From a virus (Duplodnaviria; Caudoviricetes), in the IMG/VR virus record IMGVR_UViG_3300001598_000048, positions 1 to 64,000 of that record: a stretch of 64,000 nucleotides of DNA; one strand, 5' to 3'. This document shows, in pieces, positions 9,600 to 58,492 of the stretch. Position numbers and translations under genes: made by a program. Below the pieces are notes generated by a model. The model was not told the origin of the DNA and ran no database searches. It worked only from the letters and a program-made list of their open reading frames with translations. How positions within the stretch are numbered: position 1 is the stretch's first letter; every line of letters starts with the position of its first letter.

Positions 9600-9628
9600 T
9601 TGACAAAATGAAAAATTAGTATTATACT
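9600..9628 (+). promoter_or_regulatory. sigma70/sigmaA-type promoter
   Basis: TTGACA-N17-TATACT. Confidence 0.8.
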
Positions 9629-9661
9629 ATGATGTGCAACAAAAAGTAAGGAGTAAATTAA

Positions 9662-10231
9662 ATGATAATAAAATGTTACAACGAAAGTCATAAAAATTTA
9701 ATTTTTCTTGATTTGGAATTTGAAAATAGAACACTTATACAATTTGCGGGATTATTATTCACTTGAATAGATGACGAAACATATCAATTGACAAGAAGTT
9801 GTAATCAATATGTAACCGCAAAAGTTTGTTATCCTTTTATGGAGTATACAAGTATTACTACGAATTTTCTAGAAGAAAACGGCATTACACTTAGAGATTT
9901 ACAAATTATCGTTAGAGATGATTTTTTAGCAGATGTAGATTTAGATGATACATTAGTTATTAGCCACGGTTTGCGCAATGATAGATTGATACTTGAAGAA
10001 AACGGCATTAATCTAATTTCGAAAAATGACAAACCCATCGATGGATATTGCACTTTTAATAATGCTCGTCGTATTTTAGAGCGCGAAAATCATGTCTCGG
10101 CTGCAGAACTTGCAGAGGAGGCGGGATATTATCTACATCACGCGCATAACGCATTTAACGATGTTTGGAGTGAAGTATCAATCTATACATTCTTAAAAAA
10201 GATAGAAAAACAAAAATTAGGAGATAAATAA
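9662..10231 (+). CDS. DEDDh (DnaQ-like) 3'-5' exonuclease (189 aa, one TGA)
   Basis: RBS AAGGAG; FLDLEFE (ExoI-like) lies upstream of the in-frame TGA at 9764; HHAHNAFND (ExoIII-like) downstream. Confidence 0.7.
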
Positions 10232-10710
10232 TGGAATTTTTATTATTAGACAAATTAAAAACCAATCAGGAATTTAATTATACTATGGTTGAATTTAATT
10301 TAGATTTGAATCAACATATGTTAAGTAATATCGCATATATAAATCAAGTTTTTAAAGATTATTTTTCATCTGTTAGTTATACAGCAATTGAAACTGAATA
10401 TTTAATAAGAATAAATATTGCGGATCAAATTGATGATGAGGAGGCATTTTTCAGCAATGCGGTTAAAACGATATTAGCAAAATTCGTTGATAATTTCTGC
10501 ATTTATGAAGGTCGTCCAAGAGAACATAGATTTGACATTCCTGAAAAATTATTAGATAAGATTATGATTAGTCGTTCACTTTTAAAGAAAATGATAAATC
10601 AAAAAACAAAAGCGGATCGAATTAATATTACTATTGTATGGAAAACCGCAAATGAGAATTTTATTTATGAATTATTAAATACTAAACATCCAGGTGAAGC
10701 GCATGAATAG
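10231..10710 (+). CDS. Hypothetical protein (159 aa)
   Basis: Translationally coupled ORF with RBS AGGAG. Confidence 0.7.
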   Translation: MEFLLLDKLKTNQEFNYTMVEFNLDLNQHMLSNIAYINQVFKDYFSSVSYTAIETEYLIRINIADQIDDEEAFFSNAVKTILAKFVDNFCIYEGRPREHRFDIPEKLLDKIMISRSLLKKMINQKTKADRINITIVWKTANENFIYELLNTKHPGEAHE

Positions 10711-11197
10711 AAAATTAGATTTTTATACAGATGGAGCTTATTCTTCTAAAAGTGAAATGGGCGGTTGAGCCGCGCTTTGTATTGAAGAAGATGAAGTAAT
10801 TAATACAAGAACTGGTTATGAACCATATTCAACAGGAAATAGATGCGAACTTTTGGCGCTCTTAAGTGCTTTAGAAGATGCAAACACTGTGGAAACAAGT
10901 AGAACAAAGATAACTATTTATACTGATAGTGCATATGTTGCGAATTGTTTTGCAGATGGTTGGTATAGAAATTGGTTATCAAATGGTTGGAAAACTGCGG
11001 ATAAACAACCAGTTAAGAATCAAGATTTATGGGTAAGAATAATTGCATTATATATTAAAATGAAAGAAAAACGTGATCTTGAAATTGTATGGATTAAAGG
11101 ACACGCTAAAAATAAATGGAATGAATATGCGGATTTACTTGCCAAGAAACAGAGAATTTTATTAGAACAAAAGATGAAGGAGGCAGATGAAAAATAA
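10703..11197 (+). CDS. rnhA: Ribonuclease HI (164 aa, one TGA)
   Basis: YTDGA...GG[TGA]AA, NRCEL, IYTDSAYV, VKNQDLW, WIKGHA, NEYADLLA; TGA at 10766 falls on the conserved GGW position. Confidence 0.92.
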
Positions 11198-11736
11198 TGA
11201 AAATATTAATTTTAATGCCTTGCGATGAACAGCACGTTTATGCCGCAAGTGGTATATATAAAGCGCTTTCAGATGAAGTAAAAGATAAATGCTTTGTTAT
11301 GCCAATGTTTATGGATTATTTAATTAATACGAAAATAGTTGGAAATTGGATAATGGCTTTCTATGATGCTTTAATTAGTGCTAAGAATCTATGTAAAGCC
11401 GCAGATGAAAAAAATGATGATGTTATTATTATTGGAAATGCTCCATCTGCCGTTAAATTTGATGCTGTTTTCAATTTTCAAGATATAGAAGAAGATATGG
11501 CTTATGAAGATAAGTTTATTGAAAAGATAAAAGAAATAGTTGCTGAAAATGAAAAATTAATCGGCTATGTTAATGATTTACATAAAGCCGAAGAAAGTAA
11601 AATGCCTTTGCATAATTGTAAGGCTACAGGCGAATTTTTATCTGCTTATATTAAAACAGATGCAAAGTTAAATTTATTAAAAGAAGAATACGAACAACGT
11701 CTTAATAGGAAAATTCCAGATGTTCTCGAAAGCTAA
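11197..11736 (+). CDS. Hypothetical protein (179 aa)
   Basis: Coupled ORF with RBS AGGAGG. Confidence 0.7.
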   Translation: MKILILMPCDEQHVYAASGIYKALSDEVKDKCFVMPMFMDYLINTKIVGNWIMAFYDALISAKNLCKAADEKNDDVIIIGNAPSAVKFDAVFNFQDIEEDMAYEDKFIEKIKEIVAENEKLIGYVNDLHKAEESKMPLHNCKATGEFLSAYIKTDAKLNLLKEEYEQRLNRKIPDVLES

Positions 11737-13024
11737 TAATTTTGAATTAGACCTTAAAGATTTGGATGAGTCTCAGCTCGCAGCCGTGACAAGTGCGGAA
11801 GAAAATGTCGTTATAAGGGCTTCGGCAGGTAGCGGCAAAACTAAATCTTTAATAAGTGCGATTGCAAATTACAGATATGAACATATTAACGATAGGATTT
11901 GCGCAATTACGTATACTCGTGCCGCACGTTCTGAAATGGAAGAACGTTTAAAAAATATGGGTATATTTGATGTAGAAGTTACTACAATCCACGTATGAGC
12001 CCGCAATCAATTAGAATTCTTTGCGGATCATTATGACTTCTTAATCAATATTTTACAAGAATCGCAAATTAAAAAGATATTAAAGAATGAAATTGTGCCG
12101 CAATATCTTCTAAAATCTAAGGTTAAATCTGTTAATATTGATATTTTATATACTTATATCACTGGTAGTAAAAATATGGATATAAGTGATAATTATCGCC
12201 GCACACTAAATGCAATTGAAACAAGATATATAGATTATAAACGAAATCAACATCTGTATGATTTTACAGATTATCCTTTATATCTATATGATGTATTAAC
12301 TATTTATAATGAAAATATAAATACTATTGATGCTTTATTTGTGGATGAGTTTCAAGACGTTGATGAAACACAATTTAAGATATTTGAAAAAGTTAATACA
12401 AATAAGAAATTCTTTATTGGCGATCCTTGGCAAAGTATATTTGTTTTTAGAGGAGCCGATGGAGAAGTTTTCAGCAAACTTGACAAATTTAAACAATATA
12501 AATTAAAATATAATTATCGTAGTTATCAAGAGATTATTGATTACGCAACTACTGTATATGATACACTAAAAAAAGATGTAGAAATTGAAGAAGAAAATCC
12601 AAATGGATTTTATATTTCAGAGATTAATTGAAGCGATCCGAGTTCTGTTATTTGTGATAGAAAATATGGTGGTTCAGTTACTGTTGTTAATCCTTATAGT
12701 GTAAGTTGAATTTTTACTGATACTAATAAAACTTATGTTGCATCTACTCTTGAATTTAATAATATTATGACTTCTAATCCGATGATACTTTGCAGAACGA
12801 ATAAACAAGTAAGAGAAATTCAGTCTTGTGGTTATATTAATGCAAGTACGGTTCATCAAGCAAAAGGATTGGAATATGATAATGTTATTGTTATTGATTG
12901 CGATATAAAATCAATGGAAGATTTGAATATTGCTTATGTTGCAATGACACGAGCAAAAAACAATCTTTTTGTTATTAATTGAAGTCAATTTGAATTATTA
13001 TTTAAAAATTGACTGGAGGGATAG
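11720..13024 (+). CDS. UvrD/Rep-like SF1 helicase (434 aa, 5 TGA)
   Basis: ASAGSGKT, ITYTRAA, VDEFQD, IGDPWQSI, NYRS, TVHQAKGLEYD, YVAMTRAK in one frame across TGA at 11996, 12629, 12707, 12980 and 13010; TAG at 13022. Confidence 0.9.
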
Positions 13025-13025
13025 T

Positions 13026-14714
13026 ATGTGGACTAATTATAATTTAACCGATCTATTGTATTCTGTAGTTGGAAGAAAACCTACTAGTTCTATGTCTATA
13101 ACTATCAAAATGAAACAATTAAAACAAGCATTTAATAGTATCGATTTAGTGCTTATTTATAATAATAATCTTGATGATGTAGATATTACTTGAAAATATG
13201 GTACATATGAAAATAAACCAGTTTTAGATTTTACACACGGATCTGTTGATTATGTTACTGTTCAAATACAAGCAATTGTTCTTGCACAACTTTTTAAATA
13301 TTCTACTGATGTGGAGGGAATACCATCTCAGGAAATAGAATTTATTTATGATCCTCAGATTAAAATGAATAGAACAAATGATATAAATTGATATAATATG
13401 TTTACAAATGATATAGGAGTGCAATTTGATGATTCTTACGGTTATCGTTGAAGTGAATCTAAATATTTAGAAAATGCTACAAACATTTTTTCAATACAAA
13501 ATTTAATAAGTAATTCTGATGCTGCAAATGCGATGAATGGAAATGTTATTCATTATAGATATGGAGTAAATGGAAAAGCAATAAATGCAAAAGGAAGAAT
13601 TGGTACAGATATAACAACTGAAACAGGATATAGAGATAAAAATACTGGTAGTTATTTTGATTTTTATAATAAAATTGAATATCTTGGTATGTATAGTGAG
13701 TCTGAAAATAATTTTTCTCATTTTGATGCAAGTAATCATTTTGTTACTTTAAATGCTTCTGGAAGTTCTATATCATACGAAGGTCCTTTTATATTTGCTC
13801 GAGTATGCAATGATTATAATTGTTTGTTAGAAAACTATTCAGATATTTATGCAAAAACAGATCATAATTTTAGTTATATATCCTATCAACAAGGAATTAA
13901 TTTAAAATTAAAAAATAAAACTATTGAATATTTCTTTGGAAATAATTGTACAAATCCTTCAAAAATTGCTAAACCAATTGATTTAGACGGAAAAATTTCT
14001 TTTAGTTCTTTATCTTCTAGTTTATCTTCTACATATTCTTTTGATGGTTCTAGTATTACACCAGAAACTAATATTAAAATAGAAGTTCCACAATTAAGTT
14101 CTGATGTTATTGGATATGATACTGCTTGAGATATTGCAAGACATATAAAATTAGAAAATTTTGCAACAGAAAGAAAACTTTATATACGATATTGAAAACA
14201 AGATGATGGAGAAAAGATTTCTTCTATAACTTTAAATAATTTAAGTCATATAACATCATCTTGTTTGAAATTCACAGATTTTAATATAGAATTATTTAAA
14301 CCTTGAAATATAGTAAATCCAAAATCTACTCTTTTAGGATGAGATTTAACTACAAACTATAATCTAAATCTCTCAAATACAGTATCTTATAGTTGAAATG
14401 ATAATTGAACTGGAGAAACACTTTATTTCGAAAGACATGATAGGAAAGAATATGGTTATGTAATTTTAGGAAAATATGGAGATTTACAATTAACAAATGA
14501 TAAGAATTTATTAAATTTAACAGATGAAGGACATAATTATTATATACAATTAGATAAACCAGATAATTATAGACAATATGCAATGTGAAGAAGCAAAAGT
14601 ACGGAATCAAATCATTTAACATATTCTATTACTTCTTTCTGTGAACCAGAAAATTCTAATAAATATAGATATTTTGTTTTTAAATTGTACAATATTACGA
14701 ATTCTATTAATTAA
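13026..14714 (+). CDS. Hypothetical N/S/T/Y-rich protein (562 aa, 10 TGA)
   Basis: RBS GGAGG, ATG at 13026, open to TAA at 14712 when TGA=Trp; includes track ORF 13533-14129. Confidence 0.75.
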
Positions 14715-14721
14715 AATTTTC

Positions 14722-14750
14722 TTGACAAATAGAAAAAAATATACTATAAT
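14722..14750 (+). promoter_or_regulatory. sigmaA-type promoter
   Basis: Perfect TTGACA-N17-TATAAT. Confidence 0.85.
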
Positions 14751-14801
14751 AATAATATAAGGATAAGTATTAACTTATCCTTTTATTGAAAGGAAAAAAA
14801 T

Positions 14802-15824
14802 ATGAAAACTATAAAAACTATAAACGATTTCGCAATGATGGAACCAATGAAATATTACAACAATGAAGATGAAAATAATCAAAAACGTCAAGATATTTTA
14901 TTAAATAAAGATAATCTTTATATTGCAACAGAAAAACACGATGGCGACTGGGGAATGTTTATTCACTATAGTAAAGGAAAAAACTTAGTTCGTAGTAGAA
15001 GTATAAGTAAAGTTACAGGAGTATATGGTGATTATACAGCAAAAGTTCCGCATTTAGTTGAAGAAATGGATAATTGGCCAGATAATACAGTAGTATTAGC
15101 AGAATTATGTTTTAAAGAATATGGAACTAATGCTAACACAGTTGGAACAATTTTAAGATGTCTTCCACCTAAAGCGATTGAACGTCAAAAGACAACTCCA
15201 TTATATGCTTATATATTTGATGTGCTAATGTATAACGGAGAAGATTTAACTAATAAACCATATTTAGAACGTATTTATTGGGAATATAATTATCGTTTTG
15301 AAGAAGAATATTTTTTTAGACGCACTGAATTATTTTATGATAACTTTGCAGAACACGCAGATGAAATTATCGTCGCAGGAGGAGAAGGTATAGTTATTCA
15401 AAAAAAATCTAATCCTTATATGTCAGGAACTAGAACTGCGTGGGCAACATTAAAAATGAAGCAAAGTTTACCGCATATGGAACTTAAAGTAATAGGATTT
15501 ATTGAACCAAATAAATTTTATGAGGGGGATTTTTCACCTATTTGGAAATATAAATTAGAGGATGGAACTTTAGTTACAAAACCATATTTTTATGGTTGGA
15601 AAGTCGGAGTTATTGTTGATTATAATGGTGTAGCAGTTAGAGTTACATCTGGTGCAACTGATGAAGATATGGAATGGTTAGCATCTAATGAAGCTGCAGA
15701 AAAACTTGCTGCGGGTGAAATATTTGCAGAGGTTAAAGCAATGAGTGAAAATGAAAAAGCATCATTACGTCACCCTGTATTAGTTAAGCTTAGAGTAGTT
15801 GAAGATGGCGTAAATGATAAATAG
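14802..15824 (+). CDS. ATP-dependent DNA ligase
   Basis: Motif I EKHDG, VLAEL, YIFDVL, EGIVIQK, KMK, LRHP; 7 Trp all TGG. Confidence 0.88.
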   Translation: MKTIKTINDFAMMEPMKYYNNEDENNQKRQDILLNKDNLYIATEKHDGDWGMFIHYSKGKNLVRSRSISKVTGVYGDYTAKVPHLVEEMDNWPDNTVVLAELCFKEYGTNANTVGTILRCLPPKAIERQKTTPLYAYIFDVLMYNGEDLTNKPYLERIYWEYNYRFEEEYFFRRTELFYDNFAEHADEIIVAGGEGIVIQKKSNPYMSGTRTAWATLKMKQSLPHMELKVIGFIEPNKFYEGDFSPIWKYKLEDGTLVTKPYFYGWKVGVIVDYNGVAVRVTSGATDEDMEWLASNEAAEKLAAGEIFAEVKAMSENEKASLRHPVLVKLRVVEDGVNDK

Positions 15825-15832
15825 GAGATAAT

Positions 15833-16123
15833 ATGAAAATAGAAAATAAATGTAAAAGTTGTAAACACGAAAAAGTTTGTCGATTTAAAGATGCATTTGA
15901 AGGTTCAAAAGAATTATTAGAAATATCAAGTAATTGGTTAGAAAGTGATAATTTTTCAATTGAATTAAAATGTAAACATTATGAAGAAGTATGGAGAAAT
16001 ACTTATGGAACAATTACTACAACACCATATTATAATGGCGGTTTTAAAATTAGTGATAATTTAAATTTTACTAATACACTTACTTCATCTGGAGATAATA
16101 ATGGACAAAGTACAACGATTTAG
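15833..16123 (+). CDS. Small Cys-containing hypothetical protein
   Basis: CKSCKHEKVC; RBS AGGAG. Confidence 0.65.
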   Translation: MKIENKCKSCKHEKVCRFKDAFEGSKELLEISSNWLESDNFSIELKCKHYEEVWRNTYGTITTTPYYNGGFKISDNLNFTNTLTSSGDNNGQSTTI

Positions 16124-16439
16124 AGAAATTGTAAATCAAATGGCTGATTTATATGAAAAGAAAAATAAAAACTATGGTAATAGTTTTGGCGAATTATTTG
16201 AAAAACTTGGTCCAATATCAGGATTAGTTCCGCTTCATAATAAGTTAGACAGAATAACTAATTTAGTAATAGGCGGTAAAAATGATTTCGAATCAGTAGA
16301 AGATAGTTTAAAAGATTTAGCTTGTTATGCAATTATGAATTTAATTGAAAGAGAATATCAAGAGAATAAATTAAAATCAGAAGAAACAAGTTATGAATGT
16401 GTAACTGAAATTGATTGGGGTAAAAAAAATGCAGAATAA
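16101..16439 (+). CDS. DUF1599-like (nucleotide modification associated domain 1) protein
   Basis: LYEKKNKNYGNSF...LHNKLDR...ESVEDSLKDLACYAIM pattern (recalled family signature). Confidence 0.75.
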   Translation: MDKVQRFREIVNQMADLYEKKNKNYGNSFGELFEKLGPISGLVPLHNKLDRITNLVIGGKNDFESVEDSLKDLACYAIMNLIEREYQENKLKSEETSYECVTEIDWGKKNAE

Positions 16440-17016
16440 ACCTCTTGGTTATTTAGGCGGAGATATTATGACTAAAGGCGCAAATCTTGCGCGTCAACAA
16501 GAGTATGATGAATTCAAGAAACTTGATATTGACGTTGATGTTTATTCACCAGTAATGAATAAATCAATTAATGACAAAGCATCAATGACAGAAGAAGAAA
16601 ATAATCATCTTGCGGAAAAAATTACAGATGCCGATATTGAAAGATTATGGAATAGTGATTTTGTAGTTATGTGTCCAGAACAAAGCGCAATTGGCTCAAT
16701 GTGCGAAACTGGCACACTTTATGGCTGGAAATATTTAACAAATAAGTTGTTATCAAAGATAAATGAATTACAAGAAGATGGAAAATCAGATAGAGAGATT
16801 TTGAGTTATTTATTTGGTGAATTAATGAGAATTCAAAATAAAGATATAGGTTATCATTACTTTGATATTAGAACAAATCACTTAAATGAAAAAGATTGGC
16901 GCAGAAGTTTTTCTATCAATCAATTATTATATGGTATGATACTTTATTCATCATCTGTTGGTGATTTTGAAACCTTTGATGAAATAATGAGTAGATTAAA
17001 AGAAAAATATAAATAG
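16411..17016 (+). CDS. Nucleoside 2-deoxyribosyltransferase-like protein
   Basis: GYLGG, VYSP, DIERLWNSD, GSMCETG pattern; true start may be about 16429. Confidence 0.7.
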   Translation: MIGVKKMQNKPLGYLGGDIMTKGANLARQQEYDEFKKLDIDVDVYSPVMNKSINDKASMTEEENNHLAEKITDADIERLWNSDFVVMCPEQSAIGSMCETGTLYGWKYLTNKLLSKINELQEDGKSDREILSYLFGELMRIQNKDIGYHYFDIRTNHLNEKDWRRSFSINQLLYGMILYSSSVGDFETFDEIMSRLKEKYK

Positions 17017-17025
17017 GAGTTTAAT

Positions 17026-17208
17026 ATGAGTGAAAAAATAAAAAGTTTAATTTTTAACATTTTAGCCATTGTATTCATCGTAATAGTATTGGCAGCCGCC
17101 GTTTGTACCGCATGCGGTTTTCAATCATTGGTTTTATCAATTTTAACATTGGTAAGTCTAATTGCTTTTATTACATTTGCTACTATTTTTAGATTTAAAA
17201 ATAAATAG
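17026..17208 (+). CDS. Small two-helix membrane protein
   Basis: Two hydrophobic stretches; RBS AGGAG. Confidence 0.65.
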   Translation: MSEKIKSLIFNILAIVFIVIVLAAAVCTACGFQSLVLSILTLVSLIAFITFATIFRFKNK

Positions 17209-17217
17209 GAGTAGCAG

Positions 17218-18498
17218 ATGAGTACTTTAATTTATAGCATTAGCGATAAACCAAAAACCATTAAGGAGTGATGTTTATATACATTACAAATGGTTCTTGC
17301 TGTATTTGTTGCTACAGTATTAATTTCTGATATATGCGGAACTCCAGTCAGTGCCTGTTTAATTGGCGCTTGTATTGGAACAATTATTTATCAATTAATT
17401 ACAGGATTTAAATCGCCTATGTTCATTTCAAGTTGCGGCGCCACAGTCAGTGCTGTTATTGGCGCACTTGCACTTCCAAGTATTAATGGACAAAACTATT
17501 TAATGGTAGTTTTTGGCGGTATTATTATTGCGATTGTTTATATGATTTTTGCCGCCTTGTATCAAATTAAAGGCGCTAACTTCATTAATAAAATATTACC
17601 ACCAACTATCGTAGGCTCAATTACAATAGTTATAGGTTTAAATCTTGCGGGATTTTTAATTACTTATACGCATGATAGTAATACTTGAGAAGTAATCGTT
17701 GCTATTTGCACTATGTTTGTAGTTGTGGTTTCATCGCATTATTTTAAAGGTTTTATGAAAACCATTCCATTTTTATTTGGTTTAGCATTTGGATATGTGT
17801 TTTGTTTAATATTAAAATTATTCGACATTAATATTATTAGTTTTGAATCTTTTAATAATTTACATTGATATCCAGAATTTACTTTCTTAAAATGGAATTC
17901 AGGTGATTTTAGTTGGTCTAATTTAGGACAAACAGTATTATTATTCTTACCAGTTGCTTTATGCGCTATTTGCGAACATATTTCAGATCATAAGACTTTA
18001 TCTAATATAGTAGAACAAGATTTAATTGCAAATCCGGGTTTAAATAAAACTTTACTTGGAGATGGAATTGCTTCTGCCGTTGGAACAATTACGTGTGGTT
18101 TACCTAATACAAGTTATGGTGAATCAATTGCAACAATAGGTTTTAGTAAAGTTGCATCTGTATGGATTACGACTGCGGCGGCCGCATTTATTGGTTTACT
18201 GTCATTTTGTGCGCCTATTACTGCTTTTATAGAAACAATACCAAGTTGTGTATTTGGTGGTTGCGCAATGGTCTTATATGGATATATTGCAGCAAGTGGA
18301 TTAAAAACATTAATGAATAATAAAGTAGATTTAGAAGATAATAAAAATCTAACTATTGTATCAGTTGTATTATGCGTAGGAGTAGGTGGAATATTTTTAT
18401 TTAGCGCATCTTTTGCTGGTGTAAGTTTAGCAATGGTATTAGGTGTTATTTTAAATCTAATTTTAAGGAATAAAAATGACGAAGAAGGAATTAAGTAA
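17218..18498 (+). CDS. uraA: NCS2-family (UraA-like) nucleobase permease (426 aq-equivalent: 426 aa, 3 TGA)
   Basis: One frame joins track ORFs 17290-17688 and 18268-18498; EHISDH, GLNKTLLGDG, GLPNTSYGES, VLYGYIAASG signatures; many TM segments. Confidence 0.88.
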
Positions 18499-25686: not shown

Positions 25687-26448
25687 ATGGAAGAAAATAA
25701 AAATATAAACACATTTGAAATATTAAATAATATAAATTTAAACGACAAAACAAAAGAAAAAATTGGTTTAAAATATTTAAGTTGGGCTTATGCTTGGGGA
25801 GAATTAAAGAAAGCATTTCCAGATGCTTCTTATATAATTTATGATAGAGATATAACTACAACTGAAGAAATAATAACAAAAGAAGATGGATATGAAAAGA
25901 AAACTACAATAACTACAACAAACACAGTTCCATACTTTACAGATGGAAAAACTTGTTTTGTTAAAGTTGGTGTAAATATTAATGGAGTAGAATATATAGA
26001 ACAATTTCCAATAATGGATAATAAGAATAACTCTGTTCCTTATTCATCAATTACAATGGTTGCTGTTAATAAGGCTTTACAAAGAGCATTTGTTAAAGCG
26101 TGTGCAAGACATGGACTTGGATTATATATTTATGCAGGTGAAGATTTACCAGAAGCAGAAAAAACTGCGCCTCTTAATATAGATTTTAATGCCATAGCAA
26201 TAGAAGTATCTAATGCGGCTTTCAATCCTATTGAGGAACCGCAATTTAAATTAATGCTTGGTGATATCATTAATAAAGTTCAAAATGTTGCATATGTAGA
26301 TGAAGTTAAAACAGGTATATCAAATTATATAGTATCTATTAATCAAGGTAAACGTTTATCTCAATTATCATATAGTACAGATTGTTTAATGGTTCAAAAA
26401 ATAGACGCCTTTATTAAGAAAGTTGAAAGTCAACTTGATAGAGGTTAG
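25687..26448 (+). CDS. DUF1071/Sak3-like single-strand annealing protein
   Basis: YLSWAYAW, NKALQRAFVKACARHGLGLYIYAGEDLP. Confidence 0.85.
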   Translation: MEENKNINTFEILNNINLNDKTKEKIGLKYLSWAYAWGELKKAFPDASYIIYDRDITTTEEIITKEDGYEKKTTITTTNTVPYFTDGKTCFVKVGVNINGVEYIEQFPIMDNKNNSVPYSSITMVAVNKALQRAFVKACARHGLGLYIYAGEDLPEAEKTAPLNIDFNAIAIEVSNAAFNPIEEPQFKLMLGDIINKVQNVAYVDEVKTGISNYIVSINQGKRLSQLSYSTDCLMVQKIDAFIKKVESQLDRG

Positions 26449-39977: not shown

Positions 39978-40699
39978 TGGGTAAACTTTCACATCAACAA
40001 ATAGCAGATGAAATAAAGGAAAAAGGTTTTGAATTAATAGACGATACGGGCTATACGAATATGACAAGCCGCATTATTGTTAAATGCGGAAAAGGACATT
40101 TATCAGAAACATCACTTGCGGATTTTAGACATCCTAGTTTTAATTGTCCTAAATGCGATAAAAATATTAATTTTATTAATCCTACTGCAGTTCCAGCGAA
40201 AGGAAATAAAAGAAGAATAATTGCATTTGATCAAGCGACTGAAAAATTTGGATTAAGTATTTTTGATAATGGAGAATTAGTATTTTATAATCTATATCAA
40301 TTTAGCGGTGATTTAGTTACTCGTTTAGTTAAATGTCGCAAATTAGTAAATAATATTGTTATTGGAAAATGAGAACCTGATTTTATTGTTATGGAAGATA
40401 TACAGATGCAAAATGGAACTATAACTTTTAAAGTATTATCAATGTTACTCGGCATTATAGAAGAATGTTGCGCCGAAAATAATATTGAGTATGAAGTTGT
40501 AAGTCCTAATGTATGACGTAAATTTGCCGGCACTTGCGGAAAAACTAGAAATGAAGAGAAAAAATTAAGTGTAGCAATGGTTGCGGAAAAATATGGCATT
40601 AAAGTTACTGACGATGTCGCTGAAGCTATTTTAATCGGCAGATATGGCGTAAAGATGCATGGTCAAGAAATTACAATGGCATTTGGTAAAATAAAATAA
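39977..40699 (+). CDS. ruvC: RuvC-like Holliday junction resolvase with N-terminal Zn-ribbon (240 aa, 2 TGA)
   Basis: C..GH and CPKC; IIAFDQAT; VMEDIQ; SPNV[TGA]RK; DDVAEAILIG; TGA at 40370 and 40514. Confidence 0.85.
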
Positions 40700-47297: not shown

Positions 47298-47310
47298 ATT
47301 TTCTACCTCT

Positions 47311-48171
47311 CTATAAAATTTTAATATTTAAATTATTAAAAGTCAAAGTTTCTTTTTCTTTAATAGCATAAACAGATTTTCTTATTAAAGTAGCTTGATC
47401 AATATAAGTATCAGTTTCATAAATTTTATCAGAAAAGAATTCTTCTTCATCGATTGTTAAATAATCTTGTATTGTGGCTACATACGCATTGTTTTTTAAA
47501 ATTGGACCATTTCATTGATTACCAACAATATCTATAATATAAGAATCAATAAAATTAATTGTTTTTGTTTCTTCTGGTCAATTTGTATATTGGCCTTTAT
47601 TGATATATCTTAAATTAAAATTAGAAATATTAAAAATAGTTTTATTAGAAAAAGCACCCAAATCATTTTTATAATAATTAGTATTTAATTCTTTATTATA
47701 AATAGAACTTCATATATAATATCCTCCATTACCAACAGGATATACTAAGAAATTTGCTGGATTTAAATATGCTGGATTTATAGACGTAGTTTGATTAGGA
47801 TTAGTAGTTATTAGACCAGTTGGTAAAATATTACAAATGATACAATATCCTGATTTAAATTCATATGCAGTATTACCTAAATAGAATTTACCATCAATTC
47901 CATTATTAATAACACCTTGACGATATAATAGTTTATGAGGATAAAATTTTCTATTAGTACCTTCTATTTGTAAAATACCTTTTTCCAATAAGATAGCATC
48001 TGTCATTATGACTTCTTCTTTTTTGCTTGTGCTATTAAAAATATCAAAATCTGGATTATAATAATATCAATAATCAAATATTGTATTTGTTTTATGTGCT
48101 AAATTTTTGACATAATTATATCAGGAATTTCAATAGTTTATATTATGATGATTAAAATTATATATCTTCAT
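47311..48171 (-). CDS. Tail-module structural protein (286 aa, 6 TGA)
   Basis: RBS AGGTG, ATG at 48171, TAG at 47311. Confidence 0.65.
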
Positions 48172-48178
48172 AAAACAC

Positions 48179-48916
48179 CTATTTAACTATTGCAAAAGAT
48201 AATAATTCTGGTCAGTTTGCACTACAAGTAAAATTACTGTTATCGGATGTCCATTTTAAATCAGTATATATTTCTTCATTATTACTTGCAAAAATTTTAA
48301 TTACTGGTTTAATAATATTTTCACCTTCTTTTTTTACAGGAAATGAAGTATTATCAGAAGTCAATATATTACCATATATATTTTCAGACGTTTGTATTCC
48401 TATATTTTTAAAATTTAAAGTTGCATATGGTTGAGTTACTGTTCATGTTCTATCTGAAGGGGTGATATCAGCAGTACCAGTAGGAGTAAGATTAGTAAAG
48501 CTATAACTAATTTCTACATTATTATTTCCTGCATTCATTTTTAATTGAGAAGGATAAAATACTCCTCCACGTTCTGATTGAATATAGATAGCAGAAGAAT
48601 CTGTATTTTTATATATAATATCTCCTCTAGATAAAACTAAATTTTGATCTTCAATATTTTTTTCGAAACTATCCGAATCAATAATTAATCCAGTATTAGG
48701 AAGAAGATTATTAAATTTACTTAAGAATTCTTCTTCCGTTTTTACTACTTCAGATATTTTATAGACATCTCATTGTGTTAATTCTTTTTTAATAAAATCC
48801 ATTTTTTTATCTAAAAATTCTAAATCTTCTTTAGCATTGGCGGCTGTGTATGTAGTAATACCAGAAGCTATAGATGGTAATTCTGTATTTCTAACAAATT
48901 TTTTATTTAAATTCAT
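48179..48916 (-). CDS. Tail-module structural protein (245 aa, 3 TGA), absent from the ORF track
   Basis: RBS AGGAGG, ATG at 48916, TAG at 48179. Confidence 0.65.
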
Positions 48917-48927
48917 ATCTAAACCTC

Positions 48928-50106
48928 CTATATTACATTAGTTCTTGGATAAGTTGTAATATTTGTTTCGCTAGTAGAAATAATTCAAGAACTATTATTA
49001 GAAGTTGTAATTAAAATTAAACTTTTTGGAATTGTAATTGAATTAAAACCACACTCTGGAAAGAAAAATTTCTTAGTAGAAAAAGTTTGTACTAAATTTT
49101 CTCCAGAAGAAGATTGTGTTGTAAGTGTTAATAATTTTCTCGTATCATTTCCCAATCCTAAAAATAATAAACCAGTTTCAGAATCATATTCAATAGTAAA
49201 TTTTAATATATCATTTGTAGCATCATTAGATTGGTTTGTATTATTAAAAATAGTAGTTAGATTATCTAAAGTTATATTGAATAAATTGTCAAATAATTCA
49301 TAATCAGAAAAAGGATTATAATTAGGTGGAGTTACTTGAGATGCCGAAGATTTTAAACGATAAATTGAACAAGTAATTGTTACATTATTACTAATAGTCG
49401 TAGCATCAGTTTTTGGTTGTAAAGTTGCAGAAAGATACAAAGGAGTTTTATTAAAAGTTTCTTTTACATATTCTGGATTATTATTGTCTTCAAATTGCCA
49501 ATATGGTTGAAACAGACTACCACCAACTAAATCTTGATGCCATTCAGTTGGAATGATTGCTCTTACACAATTCGGACCTTGTAATTCTCAATTAAGTGTC
49601 ATTTCTGTATAATACATATAATTATTATCTTCTTTTCCAACAATAGTTCTTGTAGAATCAGATATGCTACTTAATTTTACTAAATAAGCATATTGTCTAT
49701 TAAAACCAAAAGATAAATAATCTATTTCATATGGATCTAAAAATTTTAAAAACTTTTGATAATCTTCTATATTTATCCAATAAACTCCAATTTTAAATTT
49801 TAAAGTTTGTGTTTTAAAATTGATACCCATTAAAGTTCCAGACGAAGATTCAAATTGAGGATTAGTATATTCATTAGAAAAAGAAGGTCCATTATAAAAT
49901 TGTAAATCATCTGAATTAATAATAAATGCGCCAAAATTTAAAAAAGCATCATATCCTCTTCAAAGAAAACTAGTAAAATCATCTAAACCAGAACATAACT
50001 GTGAACGATTGTTCACAGTTATAGTTGATGGATTAATTCCCATAAAATAATCTGAAGATAAAGGTATATAATTTCCGTAGTTTTTATTAAGTCTACTATA
50101 ACTCAT
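48928..50106 (-). CDS. Distal-tail (Dit)-like protein (392 aa, 3 TGA)
   Basis: Immediately follows the tape-measure gene; joins track ORFs 49588-49830 and 48985-49440; call is positional. Confidence 0.55.
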
Positions 50107-50107: not shown

Positions 50108-53100
50108 TTAACTAACCCCCATTTCTTTTAATAAATTAAAAATAGTATCGATAACAACATTTTCTTGATCGCGTGTTAAAGTTGTTATATTTTCTTGATT
50201 TAAAGATAAACTTACTTGTCTATTATCAGCAGATGTAGAAATGTTATTTCAATCTATTCCGCTCATTAAATCACTACTAAAAAAAGTTGTTTTATAAGTT
50301 TCTAACAAGTTTTGTGTTTGTAAGTCTGTTAAATTCGCAGCGCCACTTCTAAAGAGTGAAGCTAAGAAATTAGTAGGATCAGACATTTCTATATTCATAG
50401 CATTTAAAAGCGCATAACTATTTTCTAATAATTCATCAAATTTATCATTAATATCATTAATAGTATCATCAATATCTGTGATAACTGCCTCTTGCGCTCT
50501 TTCTCTTAATGTTTTTATTCTTTCTTCTTCTAGATCTTTTAATTGCTTTTCTAATTGTTGTTTAGTTGCTTGTGAAGAAGTATCTGTAGAAGTTGCAAGT
50601 TTATTTAAAGAAGTCATTAATTTTTCAACATTTTCTTCATAATCTTCATCTTCTGCTTCTTGATTAACTGCATCAAAATATTTTTGATATGCTTCTTTTC
50701 TTGAATTTAGATTTTTTTCTAATGCTTCTTTTTGTTTTTGTAAATATTCTTTATAGATATTTAATTGCGCTTCTTCTTGTTCTACTTGTTGCTCTAATGA
50801 AACTTCAGTGAATTCATCAAGATTATTTAAACTTTCTAACTCTAATTCTAATTGATAGATTAGTGATTGATTTTGTTGATCAATAGATCTGGCTTTTTCT
50901 ATTTGTATTTTTAAGAATAATTCTTGTCTTCTTTCTTCTATTTTTTCTAAAAGAGTTGCATTATTCATTAATGCTTTATGAATTGAATTATAATTACCGC
51001 TTTCGAATGCTTTTGCTAATTCCGGATCTCCTGCAAATAGTTCCGCATTATCTTGCATAAATTGAAATTTATCATTTTGAGACATCGTATTTCATTTAGA
51101 AGTTGTTTCATAAATATTATCAACCATATTAGTTAAACTGTCTAAATTTTGTCCAATATTTAATATAGTTGTACTAATTGAATTATCAATGATATTTACA
51201 ATTTGATCCCATGCTTTTTGATATTCACCTCCAGAAGCTTTTATTTCATCTATATATGTACCAAATACAGATTCAATAGATTCTTTTATAGAAGTTTGTC
51301 CAGATGCAAAATTCGCTAATAGATTATCAATTAAACCTCTATAATCTTCTGAAACAAAATTTAAATCAGTTAAAGTATTAAGTTTTTCATAAGAACTATA
51401 TAATTCATTTAATTTATCTGTTGTTATTCCAATACTATCTATATATTCAATAATTTGACCATTATTAATCGATTGTAATTCGACAAGTCTATCAAATTCA
51501 TTATATAAAGTATGAAAAGCTTCTTTCATATCTCCAGTTAAAAATTGATATGTTTTGGTATAAGCGTTAATTTTATCCATTAAACTTGCATCATCGTTAG
51601 TAAGTGCATAAGATGTTTGTAATTCATTTAGTGATGTAACTAAAGATTTTATGACTTCTGGATTGTTTAATAATGCTGCCGCAACAGATGCATCTAATTC
51701 TTCAAGAATATTTTGAGTTAATGTTTCAACACCTTCTGCAATATTTTCTATTTCATCTACATAAGTATACAATCTACTATTATTAATTGCATATACTCAA
51801 TCAGAATTTTCTTTTAATAATGCAAGTCTCTGTGCTTCTGTTTTTAAAGAATTGTATTCATCAATTTGCTTATTTCTTAATGTTCTAGCTTCAGCTTCTG
51901 CTTGTTTTGCAATTTGTTCTAGATAATCTCTACGACCTCTTGTTGTTATAAGACCTTCATATTCTTCTTTTTGTGCATCTGTTAGAGAGTCTGCAGCTGA
52001 AGTCAGAAGTTCTTCCATTTCTTTTAAGTCAGCGTTTGTTTTAAGAACTTTATTATCTATTTTATCAAAAGAATCAACTATATTATCAAGTTCTGTTGCT
52101 TGTTTGTTTAAATTATAGATTTTAGATGATAATTTATCAATACTTTCTGAAGTTTTTTCACTTTCACTTTTTTTTGTTCCAGATATTCCTTTATGAATAG
52201 ATACACCAGCAAGTGCTATCATACCAGCAACAGATGCAACAACTCCTGCAGCAACAATATTACCTGCAATAGGACCTAAATCAGTAATACATTTAGTATA
52301 TGCTTGTCCTAATAATACTCCAAGAGTTTTTATTCTAGCAAGTAATCCTTTCTTTTCTATTCCAATACCAGCAATTGCATTTTTATTTTGTGCTAATTGA
52401 AGCATATTAATGACTTGCATTATAGTCATAATAGGCGTTAATACACTTAATAAATTACCAAATATACTAGTAAGACCAGAAGCATTTTGCATTAATGATA
52501 TACTTGTTTCAGCTTGTTGTAATTGTAAACCTGTAATTTCACTTTGAGTTAAAGCTATTTCTTTTTCTAGTGCTAATTTATCTACTGCCATTGCTTTGTC
52601 TACTTGTGCTGTAGCAAGTTCTATTGAACAGCCAGTTTTTTTCATCACATTAGCAATAGCTGTTTCTCTTGTAAATTCTTTTGCTTTTTGAACTTGTTTT
52701 AAAGCCATTAAATATGCTTTTTTATCAATAAGTTCTGTAGCAATTTTTGTTTTCTTTTCTTCTAAAATTGCTCTATTTTGAGCTTTTTGAACTTCTCATC
52801 TTTTTGTTGCTGAACCTAATAAAGCAGCAGATAAAAAAACCAAAGAAGTAATGGATACGAATTGACTTTTTAATGCTTCACCAATACCTTCTAATATTTT
52901 AGAACCAAATTCTACTAATTTGATTAAAGCATCATTATTAACTGCATTACTAACAATTTCTTCTCAAGCAACTTTTACTTTATTTAAAGCAGCTTCCATT
53001 CCTTCCATATAAGTTGCCATTTGTGCTAAAGTAGCACCTTGAGAACGTTGAGCAACTTCTTGTAATTCAATAACACGTTCATAGTCAGTCATCATGGCAA

Positions 53101-54742
53101 TTAAACGTGATTGTTGTCTTGTACCAGCAAGTGCTTTTGCAACTGCTGCTTGTTGATTGCTATTTAATGTATCTCATTTTTTACCTAATTCATCTAATAC
53201 ATCTTGTGTTGAACGTAATTCTCCATTAGTGTCTTTTAATTTTATATCAACATATGCCAATTGCGTTTCAACATTATTTATATCAGTATCTCCAGCTAAA
53301 GTTTCACCATAGTCTGTTAATTCACGCATACGAGCAATAATTGTCTTAAGCGCAGTACCCATAGTTTCTGGAGCTTCTCTTGTTGTTTCTAGACCTTTAG
53401 CAAGTAATGCAGTTGTATAGTCAATAGACATTCCTGCTAAATTTGCTTGTGATGCAACTTTACTTAAGGCAGTTGCTAATTCATCATAAGATGTCGCTGA
53501 TGTTGCCGCTATAGCCGCAAATTTATCTGATACTTTCATCGCATCAGATGCAGACATTTGGAATCCATTTAAAGCAGTTGTTAAATAATTAACAGATTCC
53601 GTAGCACTAATACCTGCAACTTTTGCCGCAGAAATTGCTGCTTCAGTTAATTTTAATGCTTCTTGCGCAGTTTTACCTTGACGCATGAATTGAGTTGATA
53701 CTTGAGCAACTTCTTTAGTTGTAGCACCTGTAGTTTTTGCAATTTCTTGATAAGATTTTAATAAAGCATAAGTTTGTTCTCTGGTTTTACCAGTAACCAT
53801 TGCTTGTTCTGTTAAATTTTTATCTAAATCTTGAACTGTTTTAACCGCAGAACGCATTGCTGTTCGTACGTTTTTAATAACAAGACCATAAATAGTCATT
53901 TGTTTAATAGCCTTACCAACAGCGCCAGATTGTTTTTCTATTCCTTTATTTAAATCATTTAATTCTTTATTAGGATTAACTAATTCTTCTGTAGAATTTC
54001 CATTAGAATTGTTGGATATTTGATTTCCTTCATCATTAATTGTTTTTAATTTTTGAATTAAGATATCTAATTCATTTCCAAATTCTTGCATTTTTACTGC
54101 AGCAGAATTTGAAGGATCTGTAGTATCTCCTAGTTTAGTAATATCTTTATTCGTTATTTCAATTTCAGAATCAGCTAAAGCAATACCTGCTTTTAAATTT
54201 AAATATTCTTGTCCTTCTGATTGTGTTCTAGTAAGAATTTCTTTTGCTGCAATATCTGCTTCTGTATTTCCTAATAAAGCCTCTTTCTTTAAATATTCAT
54301 AACTTCTAATTTGTTTTCCTCTTGTATTTCCATATTGAGCAATAAGATTTTTTTCTTTTGCCAAATCATCTAAATATTTTTTAGGAACTTGATCTGGACC
54401 TTTTACTCTAGATGACTTTAATTGTTCAGCCATTTTGGCTCTTTCTTCAGTTAACTTTTTTAATTGATTTTGTAAAGTTTCTAATTCTTTAGGTATTCCT
54501 TTCATACCTGCTGCAGAATTAACCAAATCTTTAATAACACTAGAAAGTAAAGTACTGGCTTTATTGAAATCTTTAGCAGTTGCATTTGCTCCTTTTCCAA
54601 GAATTGATGTTACTTGACTAATCGCAGCAAATGCTTTATTTTGTTTTTCTTGAGGCATTGAAGAATTTATAATTTTTTGTTGTAAATCTTTTACTTTTTC
54701 TTCAAGTTGAACTTTTAGAGTTACTTGATTATTACCAGGCAT
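50108..54742 (-). CDS. Tape measure protein (1544 aa, 6 TGA)
   Basis: Four track ORFs in one frame; TP901-type core (ESVNYLTTALNGF, DKFAAIA, LATALSK, PETMGTALKTIIAR, LAGTRQQSRL); coiled coils. Confidence 0.9.
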
Positions 54743-54761
54743 AAATTACCTCCAAGCAATA

Positions 54762-55097: not shown

Positions 55098-55116
55098 AAT
55101 ATCCTTTCCTTTCTAT

Positions 55117-55818: not shown

Positions 55819-55841
55819 ATAGTCACCTCATTTCTAATAAT

Positions 55842-55870
55842 AGTATAATGAACGAAATCGAAAAAATCAA
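55842..55870 (-). promoter_or_regulatory. sigmaA-like promoter restarting tail-gene transcription
   Basis: TTGATT-N17-TATACT on the minus strand. Confidence 0.55.
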
Positions 55871-55898
55871 TTTCAGATATTAAAAAAGAGAAGAAAAA

Positions 55899-56363
55899 TT
55901 ATTTCTTCTCAATTTGAAATCTATATGTAATATCTATCCAATCTTTATTATTTTTCTTATAGAACTTTTGATTCGTAGTTTTCTTATTTAACGGTCCAGC
56001 AGATGGAATATATGGACCAACTTTATAATAATCTAAAACAGATGCTAAAGTTTTATCAAATTCTTTTGAACCACTATACATCGCTGTTTTTAATTTAGGA
56101 TATTTATTTTTAATAGCGATACTAAGTAATCTAATTTGATCGTGATCTCTATCTCCACCCATAAAACATAAACAAGAAATATGCGGATTTGCATCAATAA
56201 GTTTACACAAAGAAACAATATTAATTGGAGTGCCATAATCGTTCGCGAGTCAAGGTTCAAAACAATCTTGACAATGACACGGACAATTAGTAATGTTAAG
56301 ACATAATGTTATTTCATCTGGAACTTCAGTAAAAGTGATTAAAGTTTCCGCATATTTTAACAT
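55899..56363 (-). CDS. nrdG: Anaerobic RNR activating enzyme (154 aa, one TGA)
   Basis: EVPDEITL, CPCHCQDC radical-SAM motif, P[TGA]L at 56250, CFMGGD, YYKVGPY, TTNQ. Confidence 0.9.
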
Positions 56364-58219
56364 TCTTTTTTATCTACTCCTAGATACGCACGTTTACCTG
56401 CTTCGACTTGACGAGCCGCGCTAAATGAAGATACACGTTTTAGATATCCGATAATTCTAGTTGCATAATCAACATCATCTGAACCGCATTCTGGACAAGT
56501 ACCAAAAGTATGTTTGCTAATATGACCACAATTATTACAGATGGTATTCATAACATTATAAGTGAAGTATGAACATCCTTCAGCAACTGCAACGTCCATT
56601 AATTTACGATATTGTTCTGCGGTTAAATGTTCATCTAAATTATTATGAAGCGCGCTACCACCATCACATTGACCTGTAAAATTATTTCCATGATAGCGGA
56701 ATTTTTTAATTGGATCAATAGATTTATCTTCAACTAAATAGAAATAAGAATTATAACAATCTCTTGGAACAATATAACCATCTTTTTTATCCCATTTTGC
56801 ATTCTTAACGCCTAACGATTCCGCAGGAACAAATTCAGTATTAAATTTAGCGTGTTCTTCTCTTGCGCTTACATTCATTTCGTGAATTGTATTTAAAATA
56901 TCAGATGCAAACTGTTTATATTTGTCATTATTTGGATTAATTTCAATTCCTAAAAATTCTGCTGCTTCAACGAAACCATTGATACCAATTGTTAAATATT
57001 GTCTATCTAAATCAATAAATCCGGCATCATAAATAGTTAATAATCCACCATTTTTATAATCCCAAATAATTTCATTAAATGCTTTTAAATATTTATGAAT
57101 ACGAGAAACTATTGCGGCTAAATATTCCTTTAAAGGAACTTGTTGTTCTCTATACCAATCTTGAACAATGCGGTTTAAATTCATTGTAATAACGCCTTTT
57201 GAACCTGTTTCAATTCCACCTGCGCCAAGTGTATAAGAGAAGATATTATCTTCAATGCCGTTTCTAAGTCTGCAACAAGATGATAATGAATCTACACTTT
57301 CACTTTGATACATAAAGAACGATGCGCCTTCAGCCCACATTTTACAAGCGAATGCCGCAGTTTCTGGATCTGAATATACGCCATTTGGAGTATGCATATT
57401 AACTGTTTCAACTGGGAAAGTTAAAATAGTTTTAAGACGTTCTTTATTAAATCAATCAGCATAAAGTTTTTGTATTTCTTTTGTTGTTTTCCAACAAGGT
57501 TCATCTCCATCTGGAAATACGAAATCTTTAAAAATTGCTTCAAAATAATCGTGATCGAAATATGCAATATTTAAGAATATTGATTGATATCCACGTGCAC
57601 CCGCAGGTTGATTTACTGTATAAGTAATTTGTTCAAAATATTGTTGCAATTTTTCTCTTAATGTTACTTCTGGTTTTGATTGTCCCCATAAATATTCTAC
57701 TGTATCATCTAAATGATTAATATAATCTTGACCATAATCAATACGTGCAAAATGATCAAAATAAGTTAATGCTTCTGGAGTTGCTGTTGCTCCTGCAAAT
57801 TGTCCCGCAACGAGGAATACTAAATTGATAAAAGAACCGCAAAATGAACGTAAATGTTTAGGCGCAGTTGATCCGCCACCAATTTTTGTTAATCCATCTA
57901 AAAGATATGGATATAATGAAATTGAACAGCAATATGGGAATATTGAAGTTTCATCGTGTTTATAAATAATATGATGTGCTAAATCAATTTCATATTGTTT
58001 TGCCAATTCCGCATTATATTTTTTAGTTAATTTTAAACGCATTAATTCTCTATTGAGTGCGATAAAATTCTTTTTAGGCAATTCTGCCGCAAGTGTCGCA
58101 ATATTTTTAGTTGCTACATTTGCATTTTGGTCTACTTCACTACCTGACGCCGCATTTTTGGCAATCATATAGTTTTGCATAAACTCAATTTGTTGTTCTA
58201 ATGTTTGTTCTAAACTCAT
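56357..58219 (-). CDS. nrdD: Class III (anaerobic) ribonucleotide reductase (620 aa, one TGA)
   Basis: NANVATKN, YKHDE, YCCSI, TFPVET, SCCRL, EFVPAE, GGSALH, CNNC/CPEC, TRIIGYL; TGA at 57452. Confidence 0.95.
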
Positions 58220-58221
58220 TT

Positions 58222-58458
58222 TTAAACCTCTTCAAACTTTCCTGTATTTTTAAATCTTCTTAATAAATCAAGTGCATCTTTGTATTTGTATTTAGTTCCG
58301 TTGATGCAAAGAACAGGAACCGATGATATTCCTAACTCAGACATCACATCTGCATCTTGACAATCAGTGTAAGAAAGTTTACAAGCGTCGAGTTCACGTT
58401 TAAGCATTTTACACATTCCGCAAGTTGGTAAAGAATATACTATGATACTATCTTCCAT
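58222..58458 (-). CDS. Glutaredoxin/NrdH-like redoxin
   Basis: YSLPTCGMC, SSVPVL. Confidence 0.8.
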   Translation of the reverse strand: MEDSIIVYSLPTCGMCKMLKRELDACKLSYTDCQDADVMSELGISSVPVLCINGTKYKYKDALDLLRRFKNTGKFEEV

Positions 58459-58492
58459 ATATTATCTCCTATATTTTTTTTGTATGTATATT

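Follow-up and report, generated by a model that had tools for sequence, protein, structure and literature searches.

Several short words that recur throughout genomes, among them Chi, KOPS, HIP1, and the uptake sequences, were each the starting point for the discovery of a piece of DNA machinery. The primase of phage T7 recognizes the pentamers GGGTC, TGGTC, and GTGTC, and in Escherichia coli the very-short-patch repair of the Dcm/Vsr system inflates CCWGG against CTAG. Here we analyze the pentamer TGCGG, with its complement CCGCA, in a gut phage (Caudoviricetes) represented by a single 73,445-bp viral contig (IMG/VR record IMGVR_UViG_3300001598_000048), the first 64 kb of which constitute the window. 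A preliminary description, made from the letters of this DNA, had noted that the word is enriched genome-wide on both strands and had proposed a Chi-like or methylation-linked signal.

Among described systems, phages rich in Chi carry 20 of 23 or all 32 of their sites in one orientation, clustered toward a genome terminus, and typically lack a recombination module of their own (PMC12315714, PMC3784561). A literature search for TGCGG/CCGCA as a Chi or methylase motif returned nothing relevant beyond the Haemophilus uptake signal sequence (USS), to which we return below.

A word-level excess of TGCGG/CCGCA

The window contains 141 copies of the word (65 of TGCGG, on the plus strand, and 76 of CCGCA, on the minus strand), about 2.2 per kb, and the whole contig contains 171, about 2.3 per kb, divided 78 to 93 between the two strands. 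At a GC content of 28.3% in the window (28.7% over the contig), base composition predicts 18.4 copies in the window, about 1 per 3.5 kb, in keeping with the earlier estimate of fewer than one copy per 3 kb; the excess over this expectation is 7.65-fold. The local counts given previously are likewise exact, with 15 copies at positions 9601 to 12600, 15 at 56100 to 58460, and 7 in a gene for a BMP family lipoprotein. A maximal-order Markov model already predicts 108 copies in the window, because the tetramer GCGG/CCGC itself carries the signal (224 copies observed, versus 114 under the Markov model and 51 from base composition).

Since base composition is too lenient a null for AT-rich coding DNA, we permuted synonymous codons within each gene 300 times under genetic code 4, thereby keeping both the proteins and the codon usage of each gene. 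Over the genes of the whole contig, this shuffle yields 60.1 ± 6.4 copies against the 168 observed (z of 17, 2.8-fold), which places TGCGG/CCGCA first among all 5-mers; GCGG/CCGC similarly ranks first among 4-mers (272 versus 134, z of 15.5). Thus, the genome-wide, two-strand enrichment claimed in the preliminary description survives the protein- and codon-usage-preserving shuffle that had been proposed as its check. The observed/expected ratios fall off with changes to the word: after TGCGG at 2.8 come GCGGC (2.4), GGCGG (2.0), TGCGC (2.0), and TGCCG (1.75), followed by AGCGG (1.3), TGCGA (1.1), TGCGT (0.8), and CGCGG (0.7). The control words named beforehand, GGCGA (1.18) and CGCCA (1.73), are not enriched to the same degree as TGCGG. 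Extension to hexamers gives 59 copies of TGCGGA versus 23 expected and 45 of TGCGGT versus 14, with TGCGGC making up 49 of the 168 copies. The excess is a genuine word-level DNA signal and not a set of conserved sites.

Resolution by codon register shows where the word is built. In the phage, the alanine registers xxT-GCG-G (68 observed versus 31 expected) and xCC-GCA (41 versus 7) are raised, as are TGC-GG (23 versus 13.3), CCG-CA (22 versus 3.8), and C-CGC-A (7 versus 1.4). About two-thirds of the phage excess falls in the alanine register (xxT-GCG-G and xCC-GCA) and about one-third in registers that are raised in the phage clade only. The word is made from otherwise rare codons in different frames, as the preliminary description had stated: the GCG share of alanine codons is 32% between a preceding T and a following G and 9% after an A, CCG codons precede a C in 32 of 51 cases, and ACC and GCC are mostly placed before GCA. 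Relative to expectation, the antisense strand of the genes carries the word as frequently as the sense strand. We further scanned 484 testable 5-mers in the pooled coding DNA of the phage and three relatives (126 kb) and found TGCGG raised in each of the 5 cells of orientation and frame that could be tested, the lowest ratio being 1.84 and the Stouffer z 23.2; the runner-up, GCSGC, has a z of 12.2, and its excess is partly explained by avoidance of GCWGC. TGCGG alone among the 484 words is strongly raised in every testable cell. Enrichment in every register and on both strands, to an extent reached by no other testable 5-mer, supports and strengthens the earlier proposal of a pressure at the level of DNA and not of the proteins or their codon usage.

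The same enrichment across all registers is found in four viral contigs (L001, L002, L003, and L005) whose DnaE polymerases are 73 to 78% identical to that of the phage and which, like it, are TGA recoded. The word ranks first in both L003 (51 versus 21.6) and L005 (52 versus 19.3), and a 17.9-kb TGA-recoded relative that lies whole in a metagenome-assembled genome (MAG) bin of a member of the Bacilli (L193; G066:C57) has 36 copies versus 14.4. A distant relative with 33% identity, the standard code, and 27% GC (L004) has 0 copies in 11 kb. Across the clade, word density is kept while individual sites turn over. A metagenome scan for closer relatives with which substitutions could be polarized gave only known or equally distant contigs, and a megablast search of the phage collection returned no near-identical DNA.

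Two side observations concern these relatives. A standard-code, prophage-like stretch in a 181-kb bacterial contig (L202; G061:C1:145001-165000) encodes structural genes with 27 to 47% amino acid similarity to those of the phage; together with the occurrence of L193 in a Bacilli MAG, it places this kind of phage in that bacterial order. In the 92-kb relative L005, the DnaE match at 10001 to 15596 extends over 5.6 kb, compared with 4.06 kb in the phage, and only residues 7 to 651 are covered by the open reading frame (ORF). This suggests that the gene is split or that it carries an insertion, such as an intein, an intron, or a homing element.

Genetic code, gene content, and layout of the sites

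The statistics given above need the right reading frames, and the genetic code therefore matters for the word analysis. With the standard code, ORFs cover 80% of the window; with TGA read as tryptophan, they cover 95%, and fragments merge into genes of 1,858, 1,544, 1,150, and 957 codons (example regions are 41721 to 47297, 50108 to 54742, 5542 to 8994, and 56357 to 58219). The anaerobic ribonucleotide reductase NrdD attains a full-length NRDD match only through one in-frame TGA, and the core replisome genes have none. ARAGORN with default settings found no tRNA, and hence no suppressor tRNA, in the 73-kb contig. Recoding of late genes with TGA is a published pattern in recoded gut phages (bioRxiv 10.1101/2021.08.26.457843).

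The identified genes encode gyrase-like subunits, DnaB, primase, DnaE, a RecJ-like DHH nuclease, RNase H, an ATP-dependent ligase, the Sak annealing protein, a RuvC-like resolvase, and a UvrD-like helicase, along with NrdD, NrdG, the BMP lipoprotein, and the tape measure and portal proteins. The features that bear on the word are as follows.

9601 to 12600, plus strand: dense block of 15 copies over exonuclease-like, RNase H, and UvrD-like helicase genes (Pfam RNase_H and UvrD-helicase)
11720 to 13024: UvrD-like gene of the phage recombination set
25687 to 26448, plus strand: Sak single-strand annealing protein, part of the phage's own recombination set
28452 to 29528, plus strand: DnaG-type primase (PHROG match to DNA primase), which might conceivably read the word
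29528 to 31336: RecJ-like gene of the phage recombination set
31614 to 35669, plus strand: DnaE polymerase gene with 11 copies versus 2.6 expected, used as the anchor in the search for relatives
37656 to 38846, minus strand: host-like BMP family lipoprotein gene with 7 copies versus 1.8 expected
39977 to 40699: RuvC-like gene of the phage recombination set
41721 to 50106, minus strand: word-poor, TGA-rich zone of tail genes with 1 copy in 8.4 kb, about 1.1 expected, and a GC content at third codon positions (GC3) of about 0.08
56100 to 58460, minus strand: dense block of 15 copies over NrdD (one TGA read through) and its activase
62429 to 63499, minus strand: capsid-like ORF with 0 copies, 0.1 expected, matching phrog_4088 (function unknown)

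The NrdD gene by itself has 12 copies versus 3.4 expected. The preliminary description had also remarked that the capsid gene has no copies; for this capsid-like ORF, the count of zero is exact, but with an expectation of only 0.1 it is uninformative. Word density follows GC3 (rho of 0.62), and the tail zone between 41.7 and 50.1 kb is poor in the word because it has too few codons ending in G or C. The factor of enrichment is nevertheless similar in low-GC3 genes, when pooled (23 versus 8.8, 2.6-fold), and in the remaining genes (145 versus 51, 2.8-fold). A link to TGA use was rejected (rho of 0.07 with density), as was a hairpin or dimer site, since TGCGG-CCGCA pairs lie no closer than in label shuffles and short gaps are not in excess. 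No base outside the 5-mer is informative and no longer motif emerged from the flanks; along the contig, there is no clustering of copies and no strand polarity or switch in orientation.

Adjoining genes at 16101 to 18498 code for one protein resembling DUF1599, another resembling nucleoside 2-deoxyribosyltransferases, and an NCS2 permease that is complete only if TGA is tryptophan. Along with an NT5C-like nucleotidase at contig positions 72633 to 73058, they may form a nucleotide salvage or modification module.

A parallel signal in Bacilli and its bearing on candidate mechanisms

The best bacterial matches of the BMP gene, 68% and 65% identical, come from two low-GC goat-gut MAGs labeled as Bacilli bacterium (G001 and G002), which are 1.4 to 1.5 Mb in size and use the standard code. 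We treat their order as the candidate host order; all of its genomes considered here are MAGs of unknown completeness, and for the word counts they were sampled in stretches of 60 to 385 kb each (340 to 385 kb for G001 and G002). In the synonymous shuffle, TGCGG/CCGCA is the first-ranked 5-mer of G002 (385 versus 157, z of 23) and the ninth-ranked 5-mer of G001 (154 versus 79, 1.96-fold). Three of nine further genomes of the order are also enriched (G028, 2.7-fold; G026, 2.0-fold; G012, 2.05-fold), five of similar GC content are not, and one at 39.5% GC reaches only 1.4-fold, with AGCGG higher. As genomes of the same GC content differ, the enrichment is a lineage trait and not a general property of AT-rich DNA. 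The phage has the word at 2 to 4.6 times the density of the bacteria.

In the five word-bearing genomes, only the alanine register, with its wobble bases at word positions 1 and 4, is raised (xxT-GCG-G, 436 versus 177; xCC-GCA, 183 versus 42). A new finding is thus that TGCGG also leads the 5-mers in a subset of Bacilli, but in the alanine register only and in coding DNA only. The bacterial matrix of alanine codons against the preceding wobble base is reverse-complement symmetric (TGCG at 1.5 with CGCA at 1.66; AGCG at 0.47 with CGCT at 0.56), which suggests one DNA-level cause acting at one position. As a separate observation, CpG across codon boundaries is generally avoided in these five genomes (CGAA at 0.66 to 0.72, and TCGA at 0.53 to 0.63 in three of them), NNC-GCA being an exception that is raised up to 5-fold.

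A restriction of this kind to alanine codons in coding DNA, along with the two-thirds share of the phage excess in the same register, would be expected if the phage copied a host habit, serving efficient decoding, of putting GCG between a T and a G and GCA behind codons that end in C. The 3' neighbor of a codon affects wobble decoding, and in the bacteria GCG is indeed preferred before purines. However, the two preferred contexts are exact reverse complements of each other, a symmetry not predicted by translation; enrichment in the phage extends to the Cys-Gly, Pro-Gln/His, and Arg registers; and, measured against expectation, its antisense and sense strands have the word equally often. We consider an origin in codon-pair or translation context quite unlikely on these grounds.

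The Bacilli also bear on the proposal of the preliminary description that TGCGG is the Chi site read by the host AddAB (here taken together with RecBCD), accumulated by the phage to blunt degradation or to feed recombination-dependent replication. Its attraction lies in the 3' core GCGG, common to AGCGG of Bacillus subtilis (PMC3321194), and in the precedent for Chi accumulation in phages (PMC3784561, PMC12315714). It could also draw on the over-representation of the word in some bacteria of the candidate order, with 69% of the copies on the leading strand, and on the presence in many genomes of the order of an ORF of about 800 amino acids (aa) resembling the C-terminal part of AddB. Nevertheless, AGCGG is raised only 1.3-fold in the phage and is depleted in G001 and G002 (0.68- to 0.77-fold), with the proviso that the Chi site of the true host may differ. 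The split of 78 to 93 between the strands of the phage, with neither polarity nor terminal clustering, and the presence of its own Sak, RecJ-like nuclease, RuvC-like resolvase, and UvrD-like helicase are also unlike what Chi-bearing phages present. AddB exceeds the family cutoff in 0 of 106 genomes of the order (MAGs of unknown completeness from the candidate host order), and G001 and G002, in which neither AddA nor AddB but only helicases of UvrD/PcrA size were found, have the word all the same. Nor does the occurrence of the AddB-like ORF of about 800 aa follow that of the word. The leading-strand skew is explained by the location of 91% of the genes on that strand, and lagging-strand genes still favor the sense orientation 38:28; moreover, the bacterial word is limited to one register and not enriched in intergenic DNA. 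On the basis of these observations, the Chi/AddAB mechanism appears very improbable. The ORFs in question, seen in G017, G026, G028, G105, and other genomes, are about 760 to 880 aa long and match only the C-terminal nuclease part of AddB (profile positions of about 750 to 1150), and to judge from these matches they may encode a shortened helicase-nuclease partner.

The other mechanism put forward was a methyltransferase-driven, HIP1-like repeat. Such a drive, comparable to Dcm/Vsr or HIP1, would have a cytosine methylase act on the word and very-short-patch repair restore its deaminated copies, a process that would be strand symmetric, as the excess is. Both products of CpG deamination are in fact depleted in the phage (TGTGG at 0.57-fold and TGCAG at 0.77-fold), but the depletion is forced by the design of the shuffle and is not independent evidence. 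Neither a methyltransferase nor Vsr was found among the approximately 55 phage ORFs, Vsr exceeds the cutoff in 0 of 106 genomes of the order, and 5-methylcytosine (m5C) methylases (PF00145) occur in two of five word-bearing and three of five word-free genomes, being absent from G001, G002, and G012. In addition, enrichment extends to the register in which word positions 2 and 5 vary. On these grounds, this explanation is barely credible.

A further possibility is that the word is a by-product of the avoidance of restriction sites such as GCWGC, AGCT, and TGCA, combined with clustering of G and C in an AT-rich genome. Avoidance is strong in the phage (AGCT at 0.48-fold, CATG at 0.42-fold, GTAC at 0.54-fold, GGCC at 0.24-fold, and GCWGC at 0.53-fold), GCSGC is a natural stand-in for GCWGC in Ala-Ala pairs, and the 49 copies within TGCGGC would be in line with such substitution. 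However, TGCGGA and TGCGGT are as enriched as TGCGGC (2.5- to 3.2-fold), and the excess of other GC-rich words is much smaller. Avoidance of TGCA and TGCAG was rejected as the driver, since the word-bearing bacteria show no depletion of either and one genome of the order (G007) avoids TGCA without gaining the word. We therefore view a by-product of avoidance as highly unlikely. Other short palindromes are avoided as well (GATC at 0.69, CCGG at 0.47, and CTAG at 0.57 in the synonymous shuffle of the whole contig); the avoidance of palindromes and GCWGC suggests a DNA exposed to many restriction systems and not globally hypermodified. A second over-represented word, CAGATG/CATCTG (116 versus 62, z of 7.9), lies mainly in xCA-GAT-G and xCA-TCT-G and is also raised off these registers.

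Selection, neutral drive, and known systems

We tentatively favor an explanation in two layers, in which a host-linked context bias in the alanine register is overlaid by a selective advantage, in the phage, of a word that a DNA-tracking enzyme would recognize. The first layer, accounting for about two-thirds of the excess, would be a neighbor-dependent synonymous choice shared with the subset of Bacilli. The second, about one-third, would comprise the TGC-GG, CCG-CA, and C-CGC-A routes seen in the phage clade only. There, every route to the complete word is favored, which is what selection for the word itself predicts, and which a single mutational or repair bias predicts poorly. We infer that selection rather than mutation maintains this second layer. 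A weak whole-genome pressure, equal on both strands, might hold the word at about 2.3 per kb, the phage having been selected for a dense, short, GC-rich recognition word in DNA of 28% GC, to be read by an enzyme that tracks the DNA from either direction. The reader could be the DnaG-type primase of the phage, the product of its UvrD-like helicase operon, or a host nuclease, and the logic would be Chi-like but distinct from the Firmicute AddAB/AGCGG system. A protein-binding or recognition site, the last of the alternatives in the preliminary description, would be compatible with such a reader.

A stronger version of the two-layer explanation would make TGCGG a self-marking or traffic signal for a DNA-tracking enzyme other than AddAB or RecBCD throughout the clade of TGA-recoded gut phages. 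The dense word might then let phage DNA of 28% GC be replicated, recombined, or spared when other DNA is not, and the reader might be the phage helicase/nuclease operon, the primase, or the nucleases of about 800 aa in the host order that resemble the C terminus of AddB. In this specific form, the proposal seems unlikely to us.

Several findings weigh against selection for a recognition word. In the word-bearing bacteria, such selection is rejected both by the nonalanine registers (TGC-GG at 0.63-fold and CCG-CA at 0.55-fold) and by strictly intergenic DNA (9 copies versus 7.1 expected). In codon alignments of the phage with its relatives, 41 sites fall at conserved amino acids, and the word is shared at 14 of them, which equals the baseline of about 35% for GC-rich 5-mers. 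The words related to TGCGG (GCGGC, GGCGG, TGCGC, and TGCCG) are themselves raised 1.7- to 2.4-fold, which fits neutral drive. Gaps of about 10 kb per strand at 41 to 55 kb argue against a strict need for spacing, as in obligatory priming sites. This turnover of sites, the raised neighbor words, and the long gaps fit neutral drive at least as well. The host link is weak, its basis being a single word, the match of the BMP gene, and the GC content: 5-mer context profiles of phage and bacteria correlate with r values of 0 to 0.28 and are no better for word-bearing than for word-free genomes, by which a host-mimicking oligonucleotide signature was also rejected as a source of the word. In a search for CRISPR spacers, the window between 40 and 60 kb gave 20 short high-identity matches to genomes of the order, 0 of them in repeat arrays, and the E values of such matches are inflated by AT-rich composition. 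On the technical side, the phage genes were called under code 4 with a simple ORF picker of our own, and the counts in class C of the registers are small.

The principal competitor is accordingly a pure neutral drive, i.e., a neighbor-dependent mutation or mismatch repair bias, in the cells of the host lineage or in the phage replisome, toward a functionless TGCGG. Such a drive would account for an excess that is strand symmetric, unoriented, unclustered, and devoid of a flanking consensus, for a density kept while sites turn over, for an equal factor in all gene classes, and for the elevation of words one step removed. In the bacteria, it is also consistent with the reverse-complement symmetry of the alanine matrix and with a register that varies word positions 1 and 4, as a single transition from TGCAG to TGCGG would. 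In contrast, the enrichment of all three phage registers for the complete word would require several independent context biases, and the phage is 2 to 4.6 times denser in the word than the bacteria, the strictly intergenic DNA of which is not enriched. The order lacks Vsr, the distribution of m5C methylases does not follow that of the word, and the required specificity is unmatched by any known enzyme. We regard pure neutral drive as a real but doubtful possibility and retain the two-layer explanation as our working preference.

On either account, TGCGG passes the strictest test that sequence by itself allows, in being raised in every codon register, on both strands, and across a phage clade. 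Were it a recognition word, it would mark an interaction of uncultured, stop codon-recoded gut phages with Bacilli of small genome size and could help to assign hosts. Were it the result of neutral drive, it would show that repair or mutation can be biased with uncommon sequence specificity and that sister lineages within a single bacterial order differ in this bias. More generally, an excess over base composition is insufficient as evidence, and it is the register-resolved shuffles that split the DNA-level signal of the phage from its one-register look-alike in the bacteria.

The word fits none of the known systems compared. The Haemophilus USS (core AAGTGCGGT; PMC5217627) contains the letters TGCGG and is likewise genome-wide and dense, at about 1 per kb. 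However, its consensus extends over at least 9 bases and it occurs in terminator pairs and intergenic DNA, whereas here only the 5-mer is informative and the bacterial signal is confined to coding DNA. A DNA uptake sequence was rejected on these two grounds, the intergenic count in the bacteria being that given above (9 versus 7.1 expected). Word inflation of the Dcm/Vsr kind resembles the present case in that a short word is in excess on both strands alike while its transition neighbors are in deficit. It differs in that here the order has no Vsr, the presence of methylases does not correlate with the word, and the preference extends to positions outside the CpG. The T7 primase pentamers are asymmetric and are needed on both strands at about 1 per kb for lagging-strand starts, and the present phage has a primase of its own; by this analogy a link to priming is conceivable, although the gaps of about 10 kb per strand differ.

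The Firmicute AddAB Chi site (AGCGG of B. subtilis; PMC3321194, PMC4824097) is similarly a 5-mer ending in GCGG, but its first base is A, whereas here it is strongly T, with AGCGG at 1.3-fold in the phage and depleted in the candidate order. The Chi sites of phages (E. coli GCTGGTGG; LLS-type, P1-like, and T5-like phages; PMC3784561, PMC12315714) share with TGCGG the character of a short, asymmetric, host-linked word, a relative excess that is higher in the phage than in the bacteria, and observed/expected ratios of the same order (2 to 5). No AddAB or RecBCD matching the word was found in the closest bacteria, and the arrangement differs as well: phage Chi sites lie in one orientation toward one genome end, usually in genomes with no recombinases, whereas TGCGG occupies both strands and is evenly spread over a genome with a full recombination set.

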